Virus record (IMG/VR): IMGVR_UViG_2693429748_000016
Reading direction: 5' to 3' (one strand)
Length of the DNA stretch: 10,141 bases
Source: a virus
Lineage: Duplodnaviria > Heunggongvirae > Uroviricota > Caudoviricetes
The notes beneath the pieces were generated by a model. It was not told the DNA's origin and searched no databases. It saw nothing but the letters and a program-made list of their open reading frames with translations. The position numbers and the translations under genes are program-made. Of the stretch, positions 1,502 to 9,963 are shown piece by piece. Each line of letters starts with the position of its first letter. Position 1 is the stretch's first letter.

Positions 1502-2002
1502 TTAGGCGCGACGGCCTTTTTGTGCAGCTAACCACCGCGCAACCGTACGATCCATTGATTCTTTTTTATCTTTCATCTCCTGAAGCATGTGTTCTTGATC
1601 TTCTTTCGGAAAAGCTCTGAACGTATGGATTAAATCTCGTTCCATCGGCTCTACGGCAAACGGTAGTTCATCCTCTGTTTGTTCTGTGTCTGCTGGTAAT
1701 GCGACTATGTTATCTTGCTGTGGTTCTCGACAATACATCCTTGCAATTTGCAGCAAATCTACCATGTCTGGCCTGATTGACTCAGGGGGAACTTTCAGTA
1801 AGCCAGCAAACTTTAGAACAGCCTCAAGGTTTAGTGGGGTTTGACCATTTAGGTAGTGACTTACCGCCCCTTGTGTTGAAAACCCCATAATTTCCGCCGC
1901 ACGTTCCTGAGTCAATCCCAACTGAGATTTCTTTGCCATCCAGATTTCTTTCAGTCTTCTGGCGGCGTTGAGGTCGGTGTCTGACAATGATTTTCTTTTC
2001 AT
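1502..2002 (-). CDS. CI-like HTH (XRE-family) repressor, PaaR-like; likely prophage immunity repressor
   Basis: ORF track 1502..2032 begins at a GTG; the first ATG (MKRKSLSDTDL..., at 2002) is the more plausible start. N-terminal HTH segment LTQERAAEIMGFSTQGAVSHYLNG. Transcribed divergently from the Cro-like gene across an operator-bearing intergenic region. First gene of the repressor-paaA-parE operon. No Ser/Lys S24 peptidase motif recognised in the C-terminal half. Confidence 0.75.
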   Translation of the reverse strand: MKRKSLSDTDLNAARRLKEIWMAKKSQLGLTQERAAEIMGFSTQGAVSHYLNGQTPLNLEAVLKFAGLLKVPPESIRPDMVDLLQIARMYCREPQQDNIVALPADTEQTEDELPFAVEPMERDLIHTFRAFPKEDQEHMLQEMKDKKESMDRTVARWLAAQKGRRA

Positions 2003-2037
2003 ACATCCAATTCTAATAAGATTGCTAATCACTTTGA

Positions 2038-2079
2038 AATAGCATCACTATTTACTTTTAAAAATAACAGTGCTATTAA
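2038..2079. promoter_or_regulatory. OR-like operator pair overlapping a candidate rightward early promoter
   Basis: AATAGCATCACTATT at 2038-2052 and ATAACAGTGCTAT at 2064-2076, same motif family as 901-941, centres about 25 bp apart. Candidate promoter TTTACT (2051-2056), 17-nt spacer, TATTAA (2074-2079), which would start transcription just upstream of the Cro-like gene. Confidence 0.45.
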
Positions 2080-2113
2080 TTATGCATTGGTAACACATCA
2101 CATAGGGCGGATT

Positions 2114-2377
2114 ATGAATCTTGGAGAATATTTGCATCATTTTCATATAACCCAGAGTTCATTTGCTGAGATTGTTGGCGCATCCCAAGGGATGGTCAGC
2201 CACGTTATAACGGGGCGTGCAAAACTTACAGGAGAAAAAATATTACGTTGGTGTGAAGCAACGGGATGGGTGGTGACCCCACATGAGATTGACAGTAAAA
2301 CCTACCCCAACCCAACTGACGGCTTGCCTGCTGAGTTTCAGGCTAACACACAACCATCGGCGGGGGTTGATTCATGA
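2114..2377 (+). CDS. Cro/YdaS-like HTH DNA-binding protein (87 aa from ATG 2114; 96 aa if started at 2087)
   Basis: HTH-like segment QSSFAEIVGASQGMVSHVITGRAKLTGEKILRW. First gene of the rightward operon, divergent from the repressor. Stop overlaps the next gene's start (ATGA at 2374-2377). Start choice between 2087 and 2114 is unresolved. Confidence 0.65.
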   Translation: MNLGEYLHHFHITQSSFAEIVGASQGMVSHVITGRAKLTGEKILRWCEATGWVVTPHEIDSKTYPNPTDGLPAEFQANTQPSAGVDS

Positions 2378-2799
2378 AAATCAAGCATGAACACATCCGC
2401 ATGGCGATGAAAGCCTGGGCGCATCCGGACGGTGAAAAAGTTCCGGCAGCTGAAATAACCAGGGTTTATTTCGAACTGGGAATGACGTTTCCGGTTCTGC
2501 ATAACGACAGCAAGCACAACACGCTTTATCTCAACACCCAAAAGATTTTCCGTTGGCTGGATAAAGACACCCCTGACGCTGTTGAAAAAATTCAGGCGTT
2601 GTTACCTGCGATCGAAAGGGCAATGCCACCTCCGCTGGTGGCTCGAATGCGCAGCCACAGTTCAGCTTATTTTCGGGAACTGGTGGAGACGCATGAACGA
2701 CTGGTGAGAGACGCTGATGATTTTGTCGCAGTGGCAATCGCCGGTTTCAATCAGATGAACCGTGGTGGCCCGGCAGGAAATGCTGTGGCAGTACATTGA
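2374..2799 (+). CDS. YdaT-like protein (141 aa), second gene of the rightward early operon
   Basis: Begins MKIKHEHIRMAMKAW. Position and size match the second gene of Rac-type ydaS-ydaT pairs. Family assignment is from gene order and recollection, not alignment. Confidence 0.6.
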   Translation: MKIKHEHIRMAMKAWAHPDGEKVPAAEITRVYFELGMTFPVLHNDSKHNTLYLNTQKIFRWLDKDTPDAVEKIQALLPAIERAMPPPLVARMRSHSSAYFRELVETHERLVRDADDFVAVAIAGFNQMNRGGPAGNAVAVH

Positions 2800-2870
2800 C
2801 TGACAATAGCCATATCGAATCGCTCCCGGCAACTCGTGAGTAAAAAGATTCGGTATCAGAAGAGGTGAGT

Positions 2871-3935
2871 ATGGCTAACGCCTGGCTCAGATTATGGCAT
2901 GACATGCCAAATGACCCTAAGTGGCGAACAATTGCCAGGGTGTCAGGGCAGCCAATTGCAACAGTGATGGCAGTGTATATCCACCTCCTGGTGAGCGCGT
3001 CACGAAATGTCACGCGAGGTCACATTGATGTCACGACAGAAGATTTGGCAAGTGCGCTCGACGTGACAGAAGAGGTAATTGATTCAATTTTGCAGACGAT
3101 GCAGGGGCGGGTACTTGATGGTGATTTAATCACTGGATGGGAAAAACGCCAGGTGCTTAAAGAGGACAACGGCAATATTTCGCAAACCGCAAAATCTCCT
3201 GCAGAGCGCAAGAGGGCGCAGCGAGAGAGGGAAAGAAAGCGGGAACAAAATGGCGATTGTCACGGCGCGTCACGAAATGTCACGCACATGTCACGACGAG
3301 TCACGACAGATACAGATAAAGATACAGATAAAGAAGATCAAAACACTATGGTCCATGGCGTAAAAAACGCCACGAACCAGGCAGGGGATGTTCAGACCGT
3401 CAATCCTGGTCAGCCAGCAGGCTCGACACCGGAAGCCGATTCAGCGTATGCGCTGAAAGCCGATTCGGGCGCTGTGCAGCAGGTGATGACCGCAAGGCCG
3501 GAGCAATCACTCCAACTGCAGCAGCCTGAAGCCGATTCCGCCATTCAGCGGGAAGCCGATCGGGTAGCCCCGGAAAACACCGGGCAGCCTGTGGGACGAG
3601 TGGATTATCCGGATGTGTTCGAACAGGTCTGGCGGGAATACCCGTTGCGTGCCGGGGCAAACCCGAAGAAATCCGCATTCAGTGCCTGGAAGGCCAGATT
3701 GCGCGAGGGGGTGCCACCAGAGACCATGCTGGATGGTGTGAGGCGTTACGCGAGATACCTGGCGGCGACCGGGAAAGCGGGAACGGAATTTGTTCAGCGA
3801 GCGACGACGTTTTTTGGGCCGGACCGGAATTTTGAAAACCCCTGGTTGCTCCCGGTAAGCGGCACGAACAACCAGCGTTGTGTGAATCATATTTCTGAAC
3901 CGGATACCGAAATTCCGCCGGGATTCAGGGGGTGA
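2871..3935 (+). CDS. phage replication initiator / replisome organiser (O-like, YdaU-like), about 354 aa
   Basis: ATG at 2871 with GAGG 5 nt upstream (ORF track begins at GTG 2865). C-terminal region (YPDVFEQVWREYPLRAGANPKKSAFSAWKARL...FENPW) resembles the conserved C-terminal domain of phage replication proteins. Lies immediately upstream of a DnaC-like loader. Carries internal iteron arrays. Confidence 0.85.
   Translation: MANAWLRLWHDMPNDPKWRTIARVSGQPIATVMAVYIHLLVSASRNVTRGHIDVTTEDLASALDVTEEVIDSILQTMQGRVLDGDLITGWEKRQVLKEDNGNISQTAKSPAERKRAQRERERKREQNGDCHGASRNVTHMSRRVTTDTDKDTDKEDQNTMVHGVKNATNQAGDVQTVNPGQPAGSTPEADSAYALKADSGAVQQVMTARPEQSLQLQQPEADSAIQREADRVAPENTGQPVGRVDYPDVFEQVWREYPLRAGANPKKSAFSAWKARLREGVPPETMLDGVRRYARYLAATGKAGTEFVQRATTFFGPDRNFENPWLLPVSGTNNQRCVNHISEPDTEIPPGFRG
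2995..3040. repeat. iteron block 1 (putative origin element) inside the replication gene
   Basis: TCACG copies at 3000, 3010 and 3031 (roughly 10-11 bp phasing). The 21-mer GCGCGTCACGAAATGTCACGC (2995-3015) recurs exactly at 3265-3285. Confidence 0.55.
3259..3334. repeat. iteron block 2 plus tandem 12-mer (putative origin core) inside the replication gene
   Basis: TCACG copies at 3260, 3270, 3280, 3291 and 3301 (spacing 10, 10, 11, 10 bp), followed by TACAGATAAAGA x2 (3311-3334) and an A-rich stretch. Resembles the lambda arrangement of an origin embedded in the O gene. Confidence 0.55.
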
Positions 3936-3941
3936 TGTGGC

Positions 3942-4688
3942 ATGAAAAACATTGCGGCAGCCGGGGTTCTTGAACGTATTCACAGACTTGCACCACAGGG
4001 GGCGGTTCCACCGTACCGGACGGTGGAGGAGTGGCGGGAATGGCAACTTGCTGAAGGACGAAAACGCAGCGAGGAGATTAACCGCCAGAATCGCCAGTTG
4101 CGGGTGGAAAAAATCCTGAATCGTTCGGGCATCCAGCCTCTGCACAGCAAATGCTCGTTTGCGAATTATCAGGTGCAGAACGACGGGCAAAAATACGCGC
4201 TGAGCCAGGCCAAATCCATAGCTGACGAACTGATGACCGGGTGCACGAATTTTGTGTTCAGCGGTAAAACCGGCACCGGGAAAAATCACCTTGCAGCGGC
4301 GATGGGTAACCGGCTGATGGCGAAGGGGCGCAGCGTGATTATCGTCACCGAGTCTGATGTCATGAGCGTGTTGCATGACAGCTACGACAACGGCAAATCC
4401 GGTGAAAAATTTTTACAGGAGCTTTGCGGGGTTGATTTGCTGGTCCTGGATGAAATAGGCATTCAGCGGGAGACGAAAAACGAGCAGGTGGTATTGCACC
4501 AGATAATTGATCGCCGGACAGCATCACTGTGCAGTGTCGGGATGTTAACAAACCTGAATCATGCCGCAATGAGCACGCTTCTTGGTGAGAGGATTATGGA
4601 CCGCATGACCATGAACGGTTGTCGGTGGGTGACGTTTAACTGGGATAGCTGGCGTTCAAATGTCAGCTTTCCGGGAGTTGTGAAGTAA
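3942..4688 (+). CDS. DnaC-like replicative helicase loader (AAA+ ATPase), 248 aa
   Basis: Walker A GKTGTGKNHLAAAMG, Walker B LLVLDEIG, and C-terminal LLGERIMDRM...WVTFNWDSWR closely paralleling E. coli DnaC. Starts 7 nt after the replication gene stop. Confidence 0.92.
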   Translation: MKNIAAAGVLERIHRLAPQGAVPPYRTVEEWREWQLAEGRKRSEEINRQNRQLRVEKILNRSGIQPLHSKCSFANYQVQNDGQKYALSQAKSIADELMTGCTNFVFSGKTGTGKNHLAAAMGNRLMAKGRSVIIVTESDVMSVLHDSYDNGKSGEKFLQELCGVDLLVLDEIGIQRETKNEQVVLHQIIDRRTASLCSVGMLTNLNHAAMSTLLGERIMDRMTMNGCRWVTFNWDSWRSNVSFPGVVK

Positions 4689-5435: not shown

Positions 5436-5450
5436 TTGCCGGGGGCGCTT

Positions 5451-5816
5451 ATGGCAAAAGTATTTACACAGGAAGAGCGGGAAAAAATTAAGGGGCAGGT
5501 TGTTGAACTCGTACGCCAGAGTGGGCGCGAGACGTTACGACAACTGGAAGCTAAAACCGGGGCGACAAGATATTTAATAAGCGTTCTCGCCAGAGAGCTG
5601 GTTGCCAGTGGGGATGTATACAACTCTGGCTACGGGTTATTCCCGTCTGAACAGGCTCGTAAGGACTGGCAAAACGCCCGCAAAAAACTCTCGAGGGCAA
5701 AGCTGAAGAAACCATCTGTGGTTGATCCGGACCTTATCTGGTCATTACCAGACGGAGAAATACGCCGCTACGAAGTACCGGCTTTCTATCAGGGTGATTT
5801 TCAGGAACCGTTCTGA
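5451..5816 (+). CDS. hypothetical phage protein (about 121 aa); 3' end fused to an IS-derived segment
   Basis: ATG at 5451 (ORF track begins at TTG 5436). A diverged second copy of most of this gene lies at 5930-6319. The last codons (..QEPF stop) fall within the sequence attributed to the IS remnant. Confidence 0.55.
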   Translation: MAKVFTQEEREKIKGQVVELVRQSGRETLRQLEAKTGATRYLISVLARELVASGDVYNSGYGLFPSEQARKDWQNARKKLSRAKLKKPSVVDPDLIWSLPDGEIRRYEVPAFYQGDFQEPF

Positions 5817-5929: not shown

Positions 5930-6319
5930 AAAATTAAAGGGCAGGTTGTTGAACTTGTACGTCTGAGCGGTCGCGAGACGTTGCGGCAACTGGAAGCCAA
6001 GACAGGTGCGACAAGATATCTGATGAGTGTTCTCGCCAGAGAGCTGGTTGCCAGTGGCGATGTATACAACTCTGGTTACGGGTTATTCCCGTCTGAACAG
6101 GCGCGTAAGGACTGGCAAAACGCCCGCAAAAAACTCTCAAGGGCAAATCTGAAGAAACCATCTGTGGTTGATCCTGACCTTATCTGGTCATTACCAGACG
6201 GAGAAATACGCCGCTACGACAGGCGTCAAAACATAATCTGTAGCGAGTGCCGGAAGAGTGAAGTTATGCAGCGTGTACCGGCTTTCTATCAGGGTGATTT
6301 TCAGGAGGCGGTACTGTGA
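5930..6319 (+). pseudogene. N-terminally truncated, diverged second copy of the 5451..5816 gene
   Basis: 5930-6230 aligns with 5483-5790 at roughly 93% identity by eye. Homology begins exactly at the IS terminus, so the copy lacks about the first 10 codons and its start. ORF track 5981..6319 starts at an internal ATG. Carries an extra 56-bp segment near the 3' end relative to copy A. Confidence 0.5.
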
Positions 6320-7051: not shown

Positions 7052-8884
7052 ATGGCCCGCATGTTTGATACATTAGGATTTTACATTATGAATGTGCAAC
7101 ATTTTGATTTTTTTACAGATAATGAGTTTTCTAATCTGGAAAGATATCAAACTTGTAAAGCCATGGCCAAAGGTTATGCGGGCAATTACAAAACCGGGCA
7201 GTCAAGGTTGATGCATGCCCGCTCATACTGCTTCAGCATCGTAGCTGCATATTGGGATACCCTTGCAAAAAAGCAAAAAAGCAGCATTAAAATGAGGGCA
7301 GTACCGCACACTGTTTACATAGAAGACATTCCATGTGATGCACGCGAGCTCGCTGAACGAACAGGTGAGCTTATTGCTCAATTTCCGGCGGAGGACGCTG
7401 GATATCTGATTGGGTCAATTTATACGGTAATGCTGCCATCCGCTTACCGTTCGGAATTGGGGGCTTACTATACCCCCCCACCTTTGGTAGCGCGTCTCTT
7501 GGACCTGGCTGAAAAGTCTGGTGTTGATTTTTCTCATGCATCGGTTATTGATCCTGCGTGTGGTGGCGGTGCATTTTTGGCACCAGTAGCCATTCGAATG
7601 TTAAAAAAAGACAAGGGGTCTTCCCCTGAATGGATGTTGAGGAGAATCAGTCGTCGTTTAAAGGGGATAGAAATCGATCCATTTGCGGCTTGGATGAGTT
7701 TGGTATTGCTCGAATCTGTACTAATGCCACTATGTGTAAAGGTAAAACGTAGATTGCCTGAAGATACAATTATTGTTGCTGATGCGCTTCAGCAAGATAA
7801 ATTTTCTGGTTATGATCTTGTGGTAGGGAATCCGCCTTACGGACGTGTCACTCTCGATATTAAAACGAGAGAAAAATATTCTCGTTCGTTATTTGGTCAT
7901 GCAAATCTATATGGATTGTTCACCGACTTAGCTGTTCGCATGGTTAAAGAGAAAACAGGAGTTATTGCATTTCTTACGCCAACTTCTTTTCTTGGTGGGC
8001 AGTATTTCACCGCGCTGCGAACCCTTTTGACCGAAAAAACTACTCCGTATGCCCTTGATTTCGTCACTGACAGGGATGGGGTCTTTGACGATGTTCTCCA
8101 GGAAACAATGTTGACAGCATTCAAGGCGGGAGAACATAAAGTTCGGGCCCAGGTATCCTCACTTGTCCCTAAGGGGTTGAACAAAGCAAAAATTGAGAAA
8201 ATAGGTAATGTTGATATAGAAAAAGGTGGAGCAACGTGGCTTTTGCCACGCGTTAAAGATGATGCCTGTTTTCTTAATGTATTAAAACAGATGTCTACGC
8301 GTTTAGCTGATCTGGGATACTCAGTCTCTACAGGTCAGTTAGTCTGGAATCGATTTAAGTCGCAGTTGCGTACGACGAAAGGAAAAAATAGCTACCCATT
8401 AGTCTGGGCGGAATCAATAACTTCAGCTGGTTTTCGTTTTAGTGCAGACAGAAAAAATCATGTTCCCTATATCGATATAACCCCACAACAGGGTTTCCTT
8501 GTGACAAAATCTGAATGTGTGCTTGTTCAGCGGACAACATCGAAGGAACAGGACAGAAGGATTTTAGCGGCAATTTTACCTCAGGGATTTATAGATGAAA
8601 CTGGTGGCGTAGTAGTTGAAAACCATATTAATATTGTATATTCAAACGGATTGTTCTCTGCGGTTCGCCCTGATGTTATTGATATGCTACTTAATTCGCA
8701 TGTTGTCGATCGGGCGTTCAGGTGTATAAGCGGAAGTGTTGCTGTTTCGGCCTATGAATTGAATTCAATCCCGTTGCCTTCTCTGGAGCAGGTGATGGAG
8801 ATTCAATCGTTAATTGATGCTGGCGTCCACAGACGGATTATTGAGAGAACTATCGCTGGTTTCTATGGAGTGATGATTGCATGA
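7052..8884 (+). CDS. gamma-class N6-adenine DNA methyltransferase (Eco57I/TaqI-like), 610 aa
   Basis: Motifs in gamma-class order: YYTPPPLV (about 7466-7489), SAM-binding VIDPACGGGAFL (about 7544-7579), catalytic VVGNPPYG (about 7819-7842), with a long C-terminal region consistent with a target-recognition domain. Alternative starts at 7061 and 7088. Visibly lower GC than the phage replication genes. Confidence 0.88.
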   Translation: MARMFDTLGFYIMNVQHFDFFTDNEFSNLERYQTCKAMAKGYAGNYKTGQSRLMHARSYCFSIVAAYWDTLAKKQKSSIKMRAVPHTVYIEDIPCDARELAERTGELIAQFPAEDAGYLIGSIYTVMLPSAYRSELGAYYTPPPLVARLLDLAEKSGVDFSHASVIDPACGGGAFLAPVAIRMLKKDKGSSPEWMLRRISRRLKGIEIDPFAAWMSLVLLESVLMPLCVKVKRRLPEDTIIVADALQQDKFSGYDLVVGNPPYGRVTLDIKTREKYSRSLFGHANLYGLFTDLAVRMVKEKTGVIAFLTPTSFLGGQYFTALRTLLTEKTTPYALDFVTDRDGVFDDVLQETMLTAFKAGEHKVRAQVSSLVPKGLNKAKIEKIGNVDIEKGGATWLLPRVKDDACFLNVLKQMSTRLADLGYSVSTGQLVWNRFKSQLRTTKGKNSYPLVWAESITSAGFRFSADRKNHVPYIDITPQQGFLVTKSECVLVQRTTSKEQDRRILAAILPQGFIDETGGVVVENHINIVYSNGLFSAVRPDVIDMLLNSHVVDRAFRCISGSVAVSAYELNSIPLPSLEQVMEIQSLIDAGVHRRIIERTIAGFYGVMIA

Positions 8885-9963
8885 ATCTGCCTGTTGTTCC
8901 CCCATTGAATGTTATCCGGGAAAGATTACAATTAATTTTCCCTGAAGGGACTGAGAATCGTGGATATTTAATTCGGGAAATAGCTGCAAAAACAATTTTT
9001 GTCATGTTTTATGCTGGTGCGGTTGAGGGGCTGGGGCGATGGATAAGGCCCAGCCAGGTTGTAAGTATGGGAGATTCGCAGGCTGCTCTTACTGATGATG
9101 CGTCCAGAGAAAGCTGGGTAAAGATGACTTTCTCTAAACAAAAGATAAGGCCTGCTGATGCATGGTATGCGGAAAATACGCGTGAGCCAATACGTGATGA
9201 AACTATAAAAAATGGCCTAATACCTTGCAATGCAATTGTTGAGCGTAAAGGTATACCCACCACATCCTCTCGTCCTCGTTACAGTTTGAATCGCTCTTTT
9301 GCAGCACTCTTTGATGCCGGGCTTGAAGGAGATTCGCTGCTGAGTGCAATAAGTTCCTGGCAAGAAAATCATTTGAACAAAGCCGCTCTTGCTAGGTTGC
9401 GTTTATTGAAATCAGGGGCAGTGATTGCTGCTGATGCCGTAGTCGTCACTTTCCCAAATGGAGAGAAGAGAACTTTAGCTCCGGGCCCGTCAAGTACAAT
9501 AGCTAAGGCCGTCATCGAAGTTTTTGCTCCTAATTTTCTTAAGAATCCAACTGTGCTCTGGTTGTCTGAATCCGGGAATAAAGTTGTTGCTCAGGATGAT
9601 GTATTGGCAAAAGCATTGGGGCTGAATATTGATGCCTCAAAAGCACTTCCAGATATTATTTTGATTGATTTGGGAGAGGACCGAACGGGTTCGGACATGC
9701 TTGTAGTTTTCACTGAAGTAGTTGCGACAGATGGGCCTATAAACAGGGAACGAAAAGTTACTCTCACTCATTTGGCTATTGACGCTGGGTTCAGCGAGAA
9801 AAATCTTGCATTCCTTACGGCATTTATGGACAGAAGTGCTCTGCCTTTTAAAAAGGCAATACCAGAATTGGCGTGGGGATCTTATGCATGGTTTGCTTCT
9901 GAACCGGAGCACTTAATTGATCTTCGGGATGGTTATCCGGTAAAGATCAGCCAGAGAAAATGA
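8881..9963 (+). CDS. putative type II restriction endonuclease (possibly BsuBI/PstI family), 360 aa
   Basis: Start overlaps the methyltransferase stop (ATGA at 8881-8884), with GGAG upstream. Same AT-rich composition. Size and M-then-R gene order match BsuBI-type systems as I remember them. No nuclease motif confidently identified by eye. Confidence 0.6.
   Translation: MNLPVVPPLNVIRERLQLIFPEGTENRGYLIREIAAKTIFVMFYAGAVEGLGRWIRPSQVVSMGDSQAALTDDASRESWVKMTFSKQKIRPADAWYAENTREPIRDETIKNGLIPCNAIVERKGIPTTSSRPRYSLNRSFAALFDAGLEGDSLLSAISSWQENHLNKAALARLRLLKSGAVIAADAVVVTFPNGEKRTLAPGPSSTIAKAVIEVFAPNFLKNPTVLWLSESGNKVVAQDDVLAKALGLNIDASKALPDIILIDLGEDRTGSDMLVVFTEVVATDGPINRERKVTLTHLAIDAGFSEKNLAFLTAFMDRSALPFKKAIPELAWGSYAWFASEPEHLIDLRDGYPVKISQRK

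Follow-up and report, generated by a model that had tools for sequence, protein, structure and literature searches.

Where does the prophage represented by IMG/VR record IMGVR_UViG_2693429748_000016 begin to replicate its DNA? The question is raised by a 10,141-nucleotide stretch of that record (Caudoviricetes; analysed over its full length and called the window below), in which a replication initiator gene carries two blocks of short, evenly spaced direct repeats. A reading made from the sequence alone had proposed that these repeats are a phage origin lying within the initiator gene and adjoined by an unwinding element. We followed this proposal up computationally, and the comparison with homologous loci supports it strongly: we consider it quite probable that the two arrays of repeats, here named A and B, are the replication origin of a lambdoid prophage, placed inside the gene for its own initiator. 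The argument rests on the following elements.

2871-3935, plus strand: initiator gene, 354 amino acids (PHROG 3729, 'replication initiation protein')
2999-3035, plus strand: iteron array A (array 1), with GTCACG at 2999, 3009 and 3030 and an in-phase, one-mismatch GTCACA at 3020
3062-3067, minus strand: lone inverted GTCACG, 27 bp past array A
3259-3305, plus strand: iteron array B (array 2), with GTCACG at 3259, 3269, 3279, 3290 and 3300
3306-3348, unstranded: A-rich, purine-rich tract of (AGATAM)n hexamers, the proposed DNA unwinding element
3349-3379, unstranded: imperfect 13-bp palindrome, TGGTCCATGGCGT-AAAAA-ACGCCACGAACCA, directly after the A-rich tract

The hexamer GTCACG occurs nine times in the window, each time within 2999-3305. 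The four sites of array A, three exact and one degenerate, follow each other at 10, 11 and 10 bp, and the five exact copies of array B at 10, 10, 11 and 10 bp. The spacing of one helical turn noticed in the sequence-only reading is thus borne out by measurement, as is the exact 21-mer GCGCGTCACGAAATGTCACGC that it had found at 2995-3015 and again at 3265-3285; its count of three copies and five is right for array B, but misses the fourth, mismatched site of array A. Both arrays lie on the same strand, array A 224 bp upstream of array B, and the copies are distributed over all three reading frames. Chance is excluded as the origin of this clustering: in 1000 dinucleotide-preserving shuffles of the window, the densest cluster of GTCACG/CGTGAC per 310 bp held 4 copies compared to 9 observed, and the longest 10/11-bp chain of any hexamer reached 3 compared to 5 observed. 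The distances from array A to array B also give a 10-bp ladder; we discounted this phasing, because counting exact copies only shifts the distance by whole repeat units, and because the loci share descent. The lone inverted copy, whose role is uncertain, is found at the same offset (+191) in loci L001 and L016, and not in L021.

A weak sigma-70-like match (GTGACA-16-GACAAT, minus strand, 3256-3283) is made by the array B iterons themselves. Counts of promoter- and terminator-like matches in 1900-4000 are those expected by chance, the sole notable item being the hairpin at 3349-3379, and there are no Rfam matches at gathering thresholds anywhere in the window.

Are the hexamers kept for the sake of the protein or of the DNA? 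Array A codes for residues 43-56, which form the end of helix 29-45 and the next loop of the N-terminal domain, while array B codes for residues 130-145 of a linker; the repeats yield, as had been claimed, the duplicated peptides SASRNVTRGHIDVTTED (residues 42-58) and GASRNVTHMSRRVTTDTD (residues 132-149). In a codon alignment of 24 homologues of the GTCACG type, taken from different genera (amino-acid identity 58-100%), third positions with four-fold degeneracy are almost invariant within the hexamers, with a mean entropy of 0.20 bit (10 sites), compared to 1.71 bit and near saturation for such positions elsewhere in conserved codons (21 sites; Mann-Whitney p=5.7e-6). The synonymous sites are frozen in array A and array B alike, whereas third positions in the spacers are mostly free: those of R45 and R49 vary, and that of R142 is partly conserved (0.83). 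These alignments show that the hexamers are under purifying selection as DNA, and it would be because selection acts on the DNA that the peptide SRNVT is kept even in a disordered linker.

The sequence-only reading had named the absence of the repeats from homologous genes as a finding that would speak against it. A one-genome-per-species scan returned 63 loci coding for the N-terminal domain (36-100% identity), and 42 of these instead keep the layout: within the first 620 nt of the gene, one hexamer forms at least three pairs in strict 10/11-bp phase; the flanking control regions contain no such case (0/57 and 0/60). Closer homologues have GTCACG at the same offsets, around +128 and around +388, and the +128 offset of array A is shared by homologues from Pseudomonas, Aeromonas, Bordetella and others. 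Distant homologues have GTAACG, GAACGC/CGAACG, GCAACG or TAACGCA in an unchanged two-block layout. Nearly all array-bearing homologues have array B, as a rule with 3-4 exact copies (range per locus 1-5) and in some cases with as many as about 7 phased ones, and whichever iteron is used, a purine-rich tract always lies directly downstream of it (AGATAAAGA..., AGAGAAGAG... and GAGGAGAGG... are examples). Because a few distant loci keep array B without array A, we place the core in array B plus the tract and assign array A an accessory part: judged from these comparisons, array B is proposed to be the core initiator-binding array, and array A is probably an auxiliary or control array.

While the rest of the N-terminal domain is conserved, the segment of residues 43-56 varies most systematically with the iteron type: it reads SRNVTRGH.DVT in loci with GTCACG, NATERGRTQ in those with GAACGC, and TATQGNADATRGN in those with GCAACG. 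One could speculate that this loop helps to read the hexamer, in which case array A DNA would both encode the recognition element and be recognised by it, and binding site and specificity would co-evolve directly, sharing the same nucleotides; we consider this a long shot.

Does any protein consistently accompany the arrays? In a set of 26 GTCACG-type loci from outside the E. coli clade (in one, L065, array B stands alone), the N-terminal domain of the initiator is encoded in all 26, and it is the sole window protein that is always there; the repressor, Cro-like, YdaT-like, DnaC-like and DUF1627 proteins, as well as the C-terminal domain of the initiator itself, are each found in only 1-2 of the 26. 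The downstream partner is a DnaB/Toprim fusion in Pseudomonas phage phita81A and dnaB in Ralstonia phage Hennie. The isolated phage Tritos (L150, 32105-33638) has the same initiator and arrays, a DUF977 gene in place of the DnaC-like loader, and no loader gene; judging by this phage, the initiator is presumably able to work with host DnaC. Apart from the two arrays, the complete Tritos genome (46 kb) contains no cluster of GTCACG. Phage PhiR5_2 and the E. coli loci L152 and L153 have only the C-terminal half in common with the window initiator (from about residue 156), and are without GTCACG. As far as these sequences tell, N-terminal domain and iterons move together, which is the modular pattern of lambdoid O genes, and their covariation lends indirect support to the view that the initiator binds the repeats sequence-specifically. 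A tblastn search with the N-terminal domain matched 26 phage records; none of them is a well-studied model phage, and phage L is not among them.

The initiator matches PHROG 3729 over its full length (E=3e-250; residues 1-354 on profile positions 1-356 of 356), and the NCBI name for its family is 'phage replisome organizer'. It is without any Pfam match above threshold. No match to the lambda O family (Phage_rep_O) was found even at E<=10; the label 'O-like' given in the earlier reading is therefore apt for the role of the protein, but not for its homology. The match to PF09681 (Phage_rep_org_N; 12.8 bits, E=0.12) stays under the 23.3-bit gathering threshold and does not make the initiator a member of that family, but the alignment spans profile positions 1-118 of 121, and a distant relation is possible. 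No homology to SPP1 G38P is detectable with hhalign (probability 0.1%), nor any to solved structures, there being no sequence match and no significant Foldseek match. As to DnaT, only the last 24 residues of the initiator match the DnaT C-terminus (NF002770, 18 bits vs a cut-off of 201); the single-stranded-DNA-binding domain of DnaT (PF17948) is recorded in some homologues of the N-terminal domain with other C-termini, and not in the window initiator.

In an AlphaFold2 model of the initiator built on 58 homologues, residues 1-95 are predicted to form an N-terminal domain of winged-helix-like topology, with helices at 2-11, 16-25, 29-45, 56-63 and 67-77 and a hairpin at 78-86; the block-mean predicted local distance difference test (pLDDT) score is 88-97 over residues 11-90, except for 76 at residues 41-50. 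A basic helix (residues 110-128), a disordered linker (about 135-222), a helical C-terminal domain (222-315) and a disordered tail ending in IPPGFRG are predicted to follow. The repeats had been placed in a probable interdomain linker, which on this model is correct for array B, while array A falls inside the confidently folded N-terminal domain.

What would be opened at such an origin? The tract that follows array B is 58% A and 72% A+T. The 12-bp tandem TACAGATAAAGA x2 pointed out before is exact at 3311-3334, and belongs to a longer (AGATAM)n run at 3308-3334. No 40-mer of the gene forms a less stable duplex than that at 3309-3349, which ranks as third least stable of the window (z=2.7). 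By sequence, 3306-3348 is the adjacent A+T-rich stretch of low stability that an iteron origin calls for, with unwinding itself putative. The length of the tract differs in 6-bp steps among near-identical E. coli relatives, most of which (L068-L147) have one extra AGATAA unit, a 6-bp, 2-residue indel, compared to window 3306-3334; long expansions occur in other genera, namely (AGATAA)n in L047 and (CAGAAG)n in L067.

The palindrome directly after the tract folds as DNA with -8.7 kcal/mol on the plus strand (z -2.8) and -10.9 on the minus strand (z -4.6). In 49 loci, 25 perfect hairpins of at least 6 bp lie 0-100 nt past the last iteron, compared to around 4 per 50-nt bin elsewhere. The best-window hairpin z is -3.1 vs -1.7 in matched controls (p ~6e-6), while the raw stabilities are close to those of one control out of two; this test replaced a shuffle test on the whole 90-nt region, because the purine tract biased the latter. 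The palindrome recurs in PhiR5_2, where A:T replaces a T:A pair in a compensatory manner, and a search of the phage collection for more distant variants returned PhiR5_2 only. In our view the palindrome probably belongs to the origin element, so that the origin, given as 2995-3334 in the sequence-only reading, probably runs on to 3349-3379.

For the palindrome taken by itself, another explanation is that it is an intrinsic terminator of leftward (antisense) transcription and not an origin element. A consensus scan does find it terminator-like on the minus strand, with a T-rich stretch after it, and on that strand the stem is an unbroken 13 pairs, G-T pairs included, with a better fold than on the plus strand. 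However, the T run is short and set off from the stem, and the sole minus-strand promoter-like match in 1900-4000 able to feed it is not downstream of it, with promoter counts at chance level; moreover, hairpins at this position recur beside origin-like tracts in families with unrelated N-terminal domains. We thus think that a terminator is unlikely here, if worth keeping in mind.

The locus as a whole shows three of the features that define an iteron origin, namely at least three phased direct repeats, an adjoining A+T-rich tract, and a linked gene for a putative cognate initiator. We infer that the N-terminal domain binds the repeats, that the tract is unwound and that a helicase is loaded there, and suggest the following course of events. 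The N-terminal domain would bind every GTCACG hexamer, and the spacing of 10-11 bp would line initiator monomers up on one face of the helix, giving an oligomeric complex on array B that array A (2999-3035) might help or regulate. Aided by negative supercoiling and by transcription that runs rightward through the gene, the complex would melt the A-rich tract at 3306-3348. The C-terminal domain and the IPPGFRG tail would then recruit the DnaC-like loader carrying host DnaB to the bubble, the palindrome at 3349-3379 forming the far edge of the element.

Several observations weigh against this reading. About one third of the homologous loci are without a clear array inside the gene. A cyanophage homologue (L154, Microcystis phage Mwe-JY25, 784-1356) has no phased hexamer array in its gene either; the array rule is therefore not universal, and this homologue marks its limit. 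Its protein, of 190 residues, is 35% identical to the N-terminal domain and has no linker. On the side of the protein, the Foldseek comparison with the PDB gave no significant match, its list consisting mostly of winged-helix regulators at E ~0.2-2, and the putative recognition helix (residues 67-77) is acidic, making a DNA-contacting surface not obvious. The A+T content of the tract, 72%, is no more than moderate, and in instability the tract ranks third in the window, not first. There are no DnaA boxes in or beside the arrays, and their number in the window is that expected by chance, which is neutral for an origin. Finally, no binding, unwinding or autonomous-replication assay for the initiator family was found in the literature searched, the coverage of which is incomplete.

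Could the arrays be regulatory sites, such as autoregulatory operators, roadblocks, or a copy-control locus that works by handcuffing like incA of plasmid P1, while replication truly starts at another place? An accessory or control role would fit array A, which lies 224 bp upstream of array B in the coding region and is missing from some homologues that keep array B, and arrays bound by initiator within a transcribed gene would plausibly hinder transcription. Yet array B always has a low-stability purine/A-rich tract directly behind it, just as iterons are classically paired with an unwinding element, and the complete Tritos genome holds no other GTCACG cluster to act as the real origin. Regulatory sites with an origin elsewhere are therefore improbable in our view; regulatory and origin roles are in any case not mutually exclusive.

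The arrays might also be bound by another protein altogether, and represent a partition centromere, a packaging site, or a site for a host factor or a CII/YdaT-like regulator. The initiator is as yet only a putative binding protein, and short helically phased direct repeats are also found at plasmid centromeres. However, only the N-terminal domain of the initiator co-occurs with the arrays, and no other neighbour does; the hexamer differs between homologues in different hosts while the layout is fixed, which argues against a conserved host factor; and there are no partition genes in the window. We consider this explanation very improbable.

That the repeats are a by-product of an SRNVT motif duplicated at the protein level, or result from chance or recent duplication without any DNA function, can be dismissed, since, although the 21-mer duplication does yield duplicated peptides and S44, V47 and T48 are invariant among homologues, with R45 and N46 mostly conserved, the copies occur in all three frames, the four-fold sites of the hexamers are frozen while most sites in spacers and other conserved codons are free (which excludes an explanation by the protein alone), one conserved peptide sits in a disordered linker, and other homologues carry different hexamers at the same place, so that frame analysis, synonymous-site test and hexamer changes at a fixed place effectively refute it and leave it next to no probability.

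If the arrays are an origin, how do they fit into their surroundings? The initiator gene is preceded by a divergent repressor-like gene, a Cro-like helix-turn-helix gene and a YdaT/CII-like gene, and followed by a DnaC-like loader gene and a DUF1627 gene; this gene order is that of a lambdoid early-right operon. The loader gene is the following.

3942-4688, plus strand: DnaC-like helicase-loader gene (NCBIfam PRK12377, 499 bits; Pfam IstB_IS21 and Bac_DnaA; PHROG 50)

The DnaC-like loader is the presumed partner that would bring host DnaB to the opened origin. Further downstream, two adjacent open reading frames (5436-5816 and 5981-6319) both match the Ren-like exclusion protein family phrog_142, one over profile positions 1-77 and the other over 30-115, and could be a split gene or a tandem pair. 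The prophage early region also holds a restriction-modification cargo pair at 7052-9963, where an N6-adenine methyltransferase of the Eco57I/MmeI type (7052-8884) overlaps a BsuBI/PstI-family restriction endonuclease (8881-9963); several of the least stable A+T-rich stretches of the window fall in this pair.

The initiator gene is common in E. coli. Seven isolated E. coli phages have it at 96.5-97.4% DNA identity, the initiator proteins of Tritos and vB_EcoS-640R1 being ~96% identical to that of the window, and it is present at full length in 1647 of 5426 complete E. coli genomes (~30%), where it is annotated as 'phage replisome organizer' or hypothetical, without an origin feature. There are up to 4 gene copies per genome. 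Many database copies of the initiator are 'partial' (in clusters of up to 1121 members), and the gene may often lie at contig breaks of draft assemblies.

Is the layout tied to one type of initiator? L152, L153 and PhiR5_2 have a different N-terminal domain without a Pfam match. In L152 and L153, AAGGGGCTT repeats form one block within N-domain coding sequence and a second within the linker, and both loci continue with the purine tract CAAGAACAGG and the same palindrome. PhiR5_2 has N-domain-coding repeats (GGGGCTT), purine tract and palindrome, with no clear second block in the linker. The elements of these second-type initiators lie as follows.

L152, 561-600 and 821-945: second-type initiator elements
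L153, 571-610 and 831-950: second-type initiator elements
L004, 2183-2214 and 2463-2550: second-type initiator elements (N-domain-coding repeats, tract and palindrome; no clear second block)

The recombination junction with the second-type initiators is at about residue 156, at the boundary of tract and palindrome.

A comparison with Rac-like prophages, suggested in the sequence-only reading, did not hold up as a comparison of homologues: E. coli K-12 Rac YdaU has an unrelated N-terminal domain and different repeats. YdaU matches DUF1376, which the window initiator does not, and homology between the two was rejected, as BLASTP aligns only the last 19 residues of the initiator, RCVNHISEPDTEIPPGFRG (window 3876-3932; 13/19 identical, ...IPPGFRG). 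The same 19 residues resemble the C-terminus of host DnaT (NF002770). This tail may be a loader-docking motif, a DnaC-like gene following in both the window and K-12 Rac. Within ydaU (L151, 3472-3650), GATGTTCAA-type repeats are followed by AATAAAGATACAGATAAAGATC and then by a C7...C7 G5 run, whose fold as a hairpin is not statistically significant; judged by this arrangement, the region is a candidate for the Rac origin (oriJ). Literature searches for the origin of the window family, for GTCACG iterons and for oriJ returned no description, although their coverage is incomplete and absence is not proven. The order of iterons, purine tract and hairpin is found in three non-homologous N-domain families (window type, AAGGGGCTT type and YdaU/DUF1376), and in two of the three an array lies inside the coding sequence of the DNA-binding domain.

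An origin in a gene so widespread in E. coli, where it is unannotated, would offer a precise target for studying prophage replication after induction, also in prophages of pathogenic strains, in which replication boosts the expression of phage-borne genes. For this initiator family it would further provide a rule for finding origins: a hexamer every 10-11 bp at about +130 and at +340 to +450, followed by a purine tract. The natural iteron variants (GTCACG, GTAACG, GAACGC, GCAACG) could serve to dissect how a small winged-helix-like domain reads 6 bp.

How does this arrangement compare with known systems? Iteron plasmids such as P1 (incC/incA) and R6K combine a winged-helix initiator with helically phased direct repeats, and a separate second array can pair with the origin array for control; their iterons are 17-22 bp long and lie outside the rep coding sequence. 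The window shares the separate second array with them, a control role for array A being putative, and differs in having iterons of 6 bp that lie within the initiator coding sequence.

In lambda, the origin lies inside the initiator gene O (PMC7466680, PMC3349717), and the likeness to lambda and Stx-phage origins is extensive. In each case the origin would lie inside the initiator gene of a pR-type early operon; to the right of several initiator-binding repeats comes an A+T-rich tract, one strand of which is rich in purines; the linker between the N-terminal DNA-binding and C-terminal partner-binding domains is encoded in part by the repeats; and N-terminal domain and iterons are exchanged jointly among mosaic phages (PMC7466680, PMC3349717). 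The placement within the gene is therefore lambda-like, as had been claimed, but the repeats are not: lambda has four 18-19-bp iterons in one block, each an inverted repeat, whereas the repeats of the window are direct, 6 bp long and spaced one to a helical turn, and of their two blocks, which lie 224 bp apart, the first is in sequence coding for the N-terminal domain. The partner, too, is a DnaC-like loader and not lambda P.

Iterons inside the gene are known for lambda O and for gene 18 of P22 and of Salmonella phage L (PMC8022706, PMC7466680); the origins of the latter two were inferred to lie within gene 18, phage L having six 11-bp repeats (PMC8022706). The short repeat period of one helical turn is common to phage L and the window, but phage L has one array and a different repeat (TGTCCAACGGA). 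SPP1 gp38 binds direct repeats (oriL) inside gene 38 that adjoin an AT-rich unwinding element, after which it brings in a loader and helicase as a pair (PMC6316719). Here the likeness is in repeats inside the initiator's own gene, and NCBI names the window family 'phage replisome organizer'; SPP1, however, has a second origin, oriR, whereas Tritos is without a second GTCACG cluster. In staphylococcal pathogenicity islands (SaPIs), a winged-helix domain reads iterons of five or six nucleotides, which are present in 6-12 copies and form two sets about an AT-rich region (PMC9371898). The window resembles these in its short hexanucleotide iterons in two sets and its winged-helix-like domain, but the SaPI origin lies outside rep, downstream of the gene, the iteron sets on the two sides of its AT-rich region are oppositely oriented, whereas both window arrays lie upstream of the tract in the same orientation, and SaPI Rep is itself a helicase, while in the window the helicase is proposed to be recruited. 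The design is thus a familiar one, which extends rather than changes what is known; what is distinctive is the use of 6-bp iterons, one per helical turn, the array within the codons of the DNA-binding domain, and the combination of tract and hairpin.

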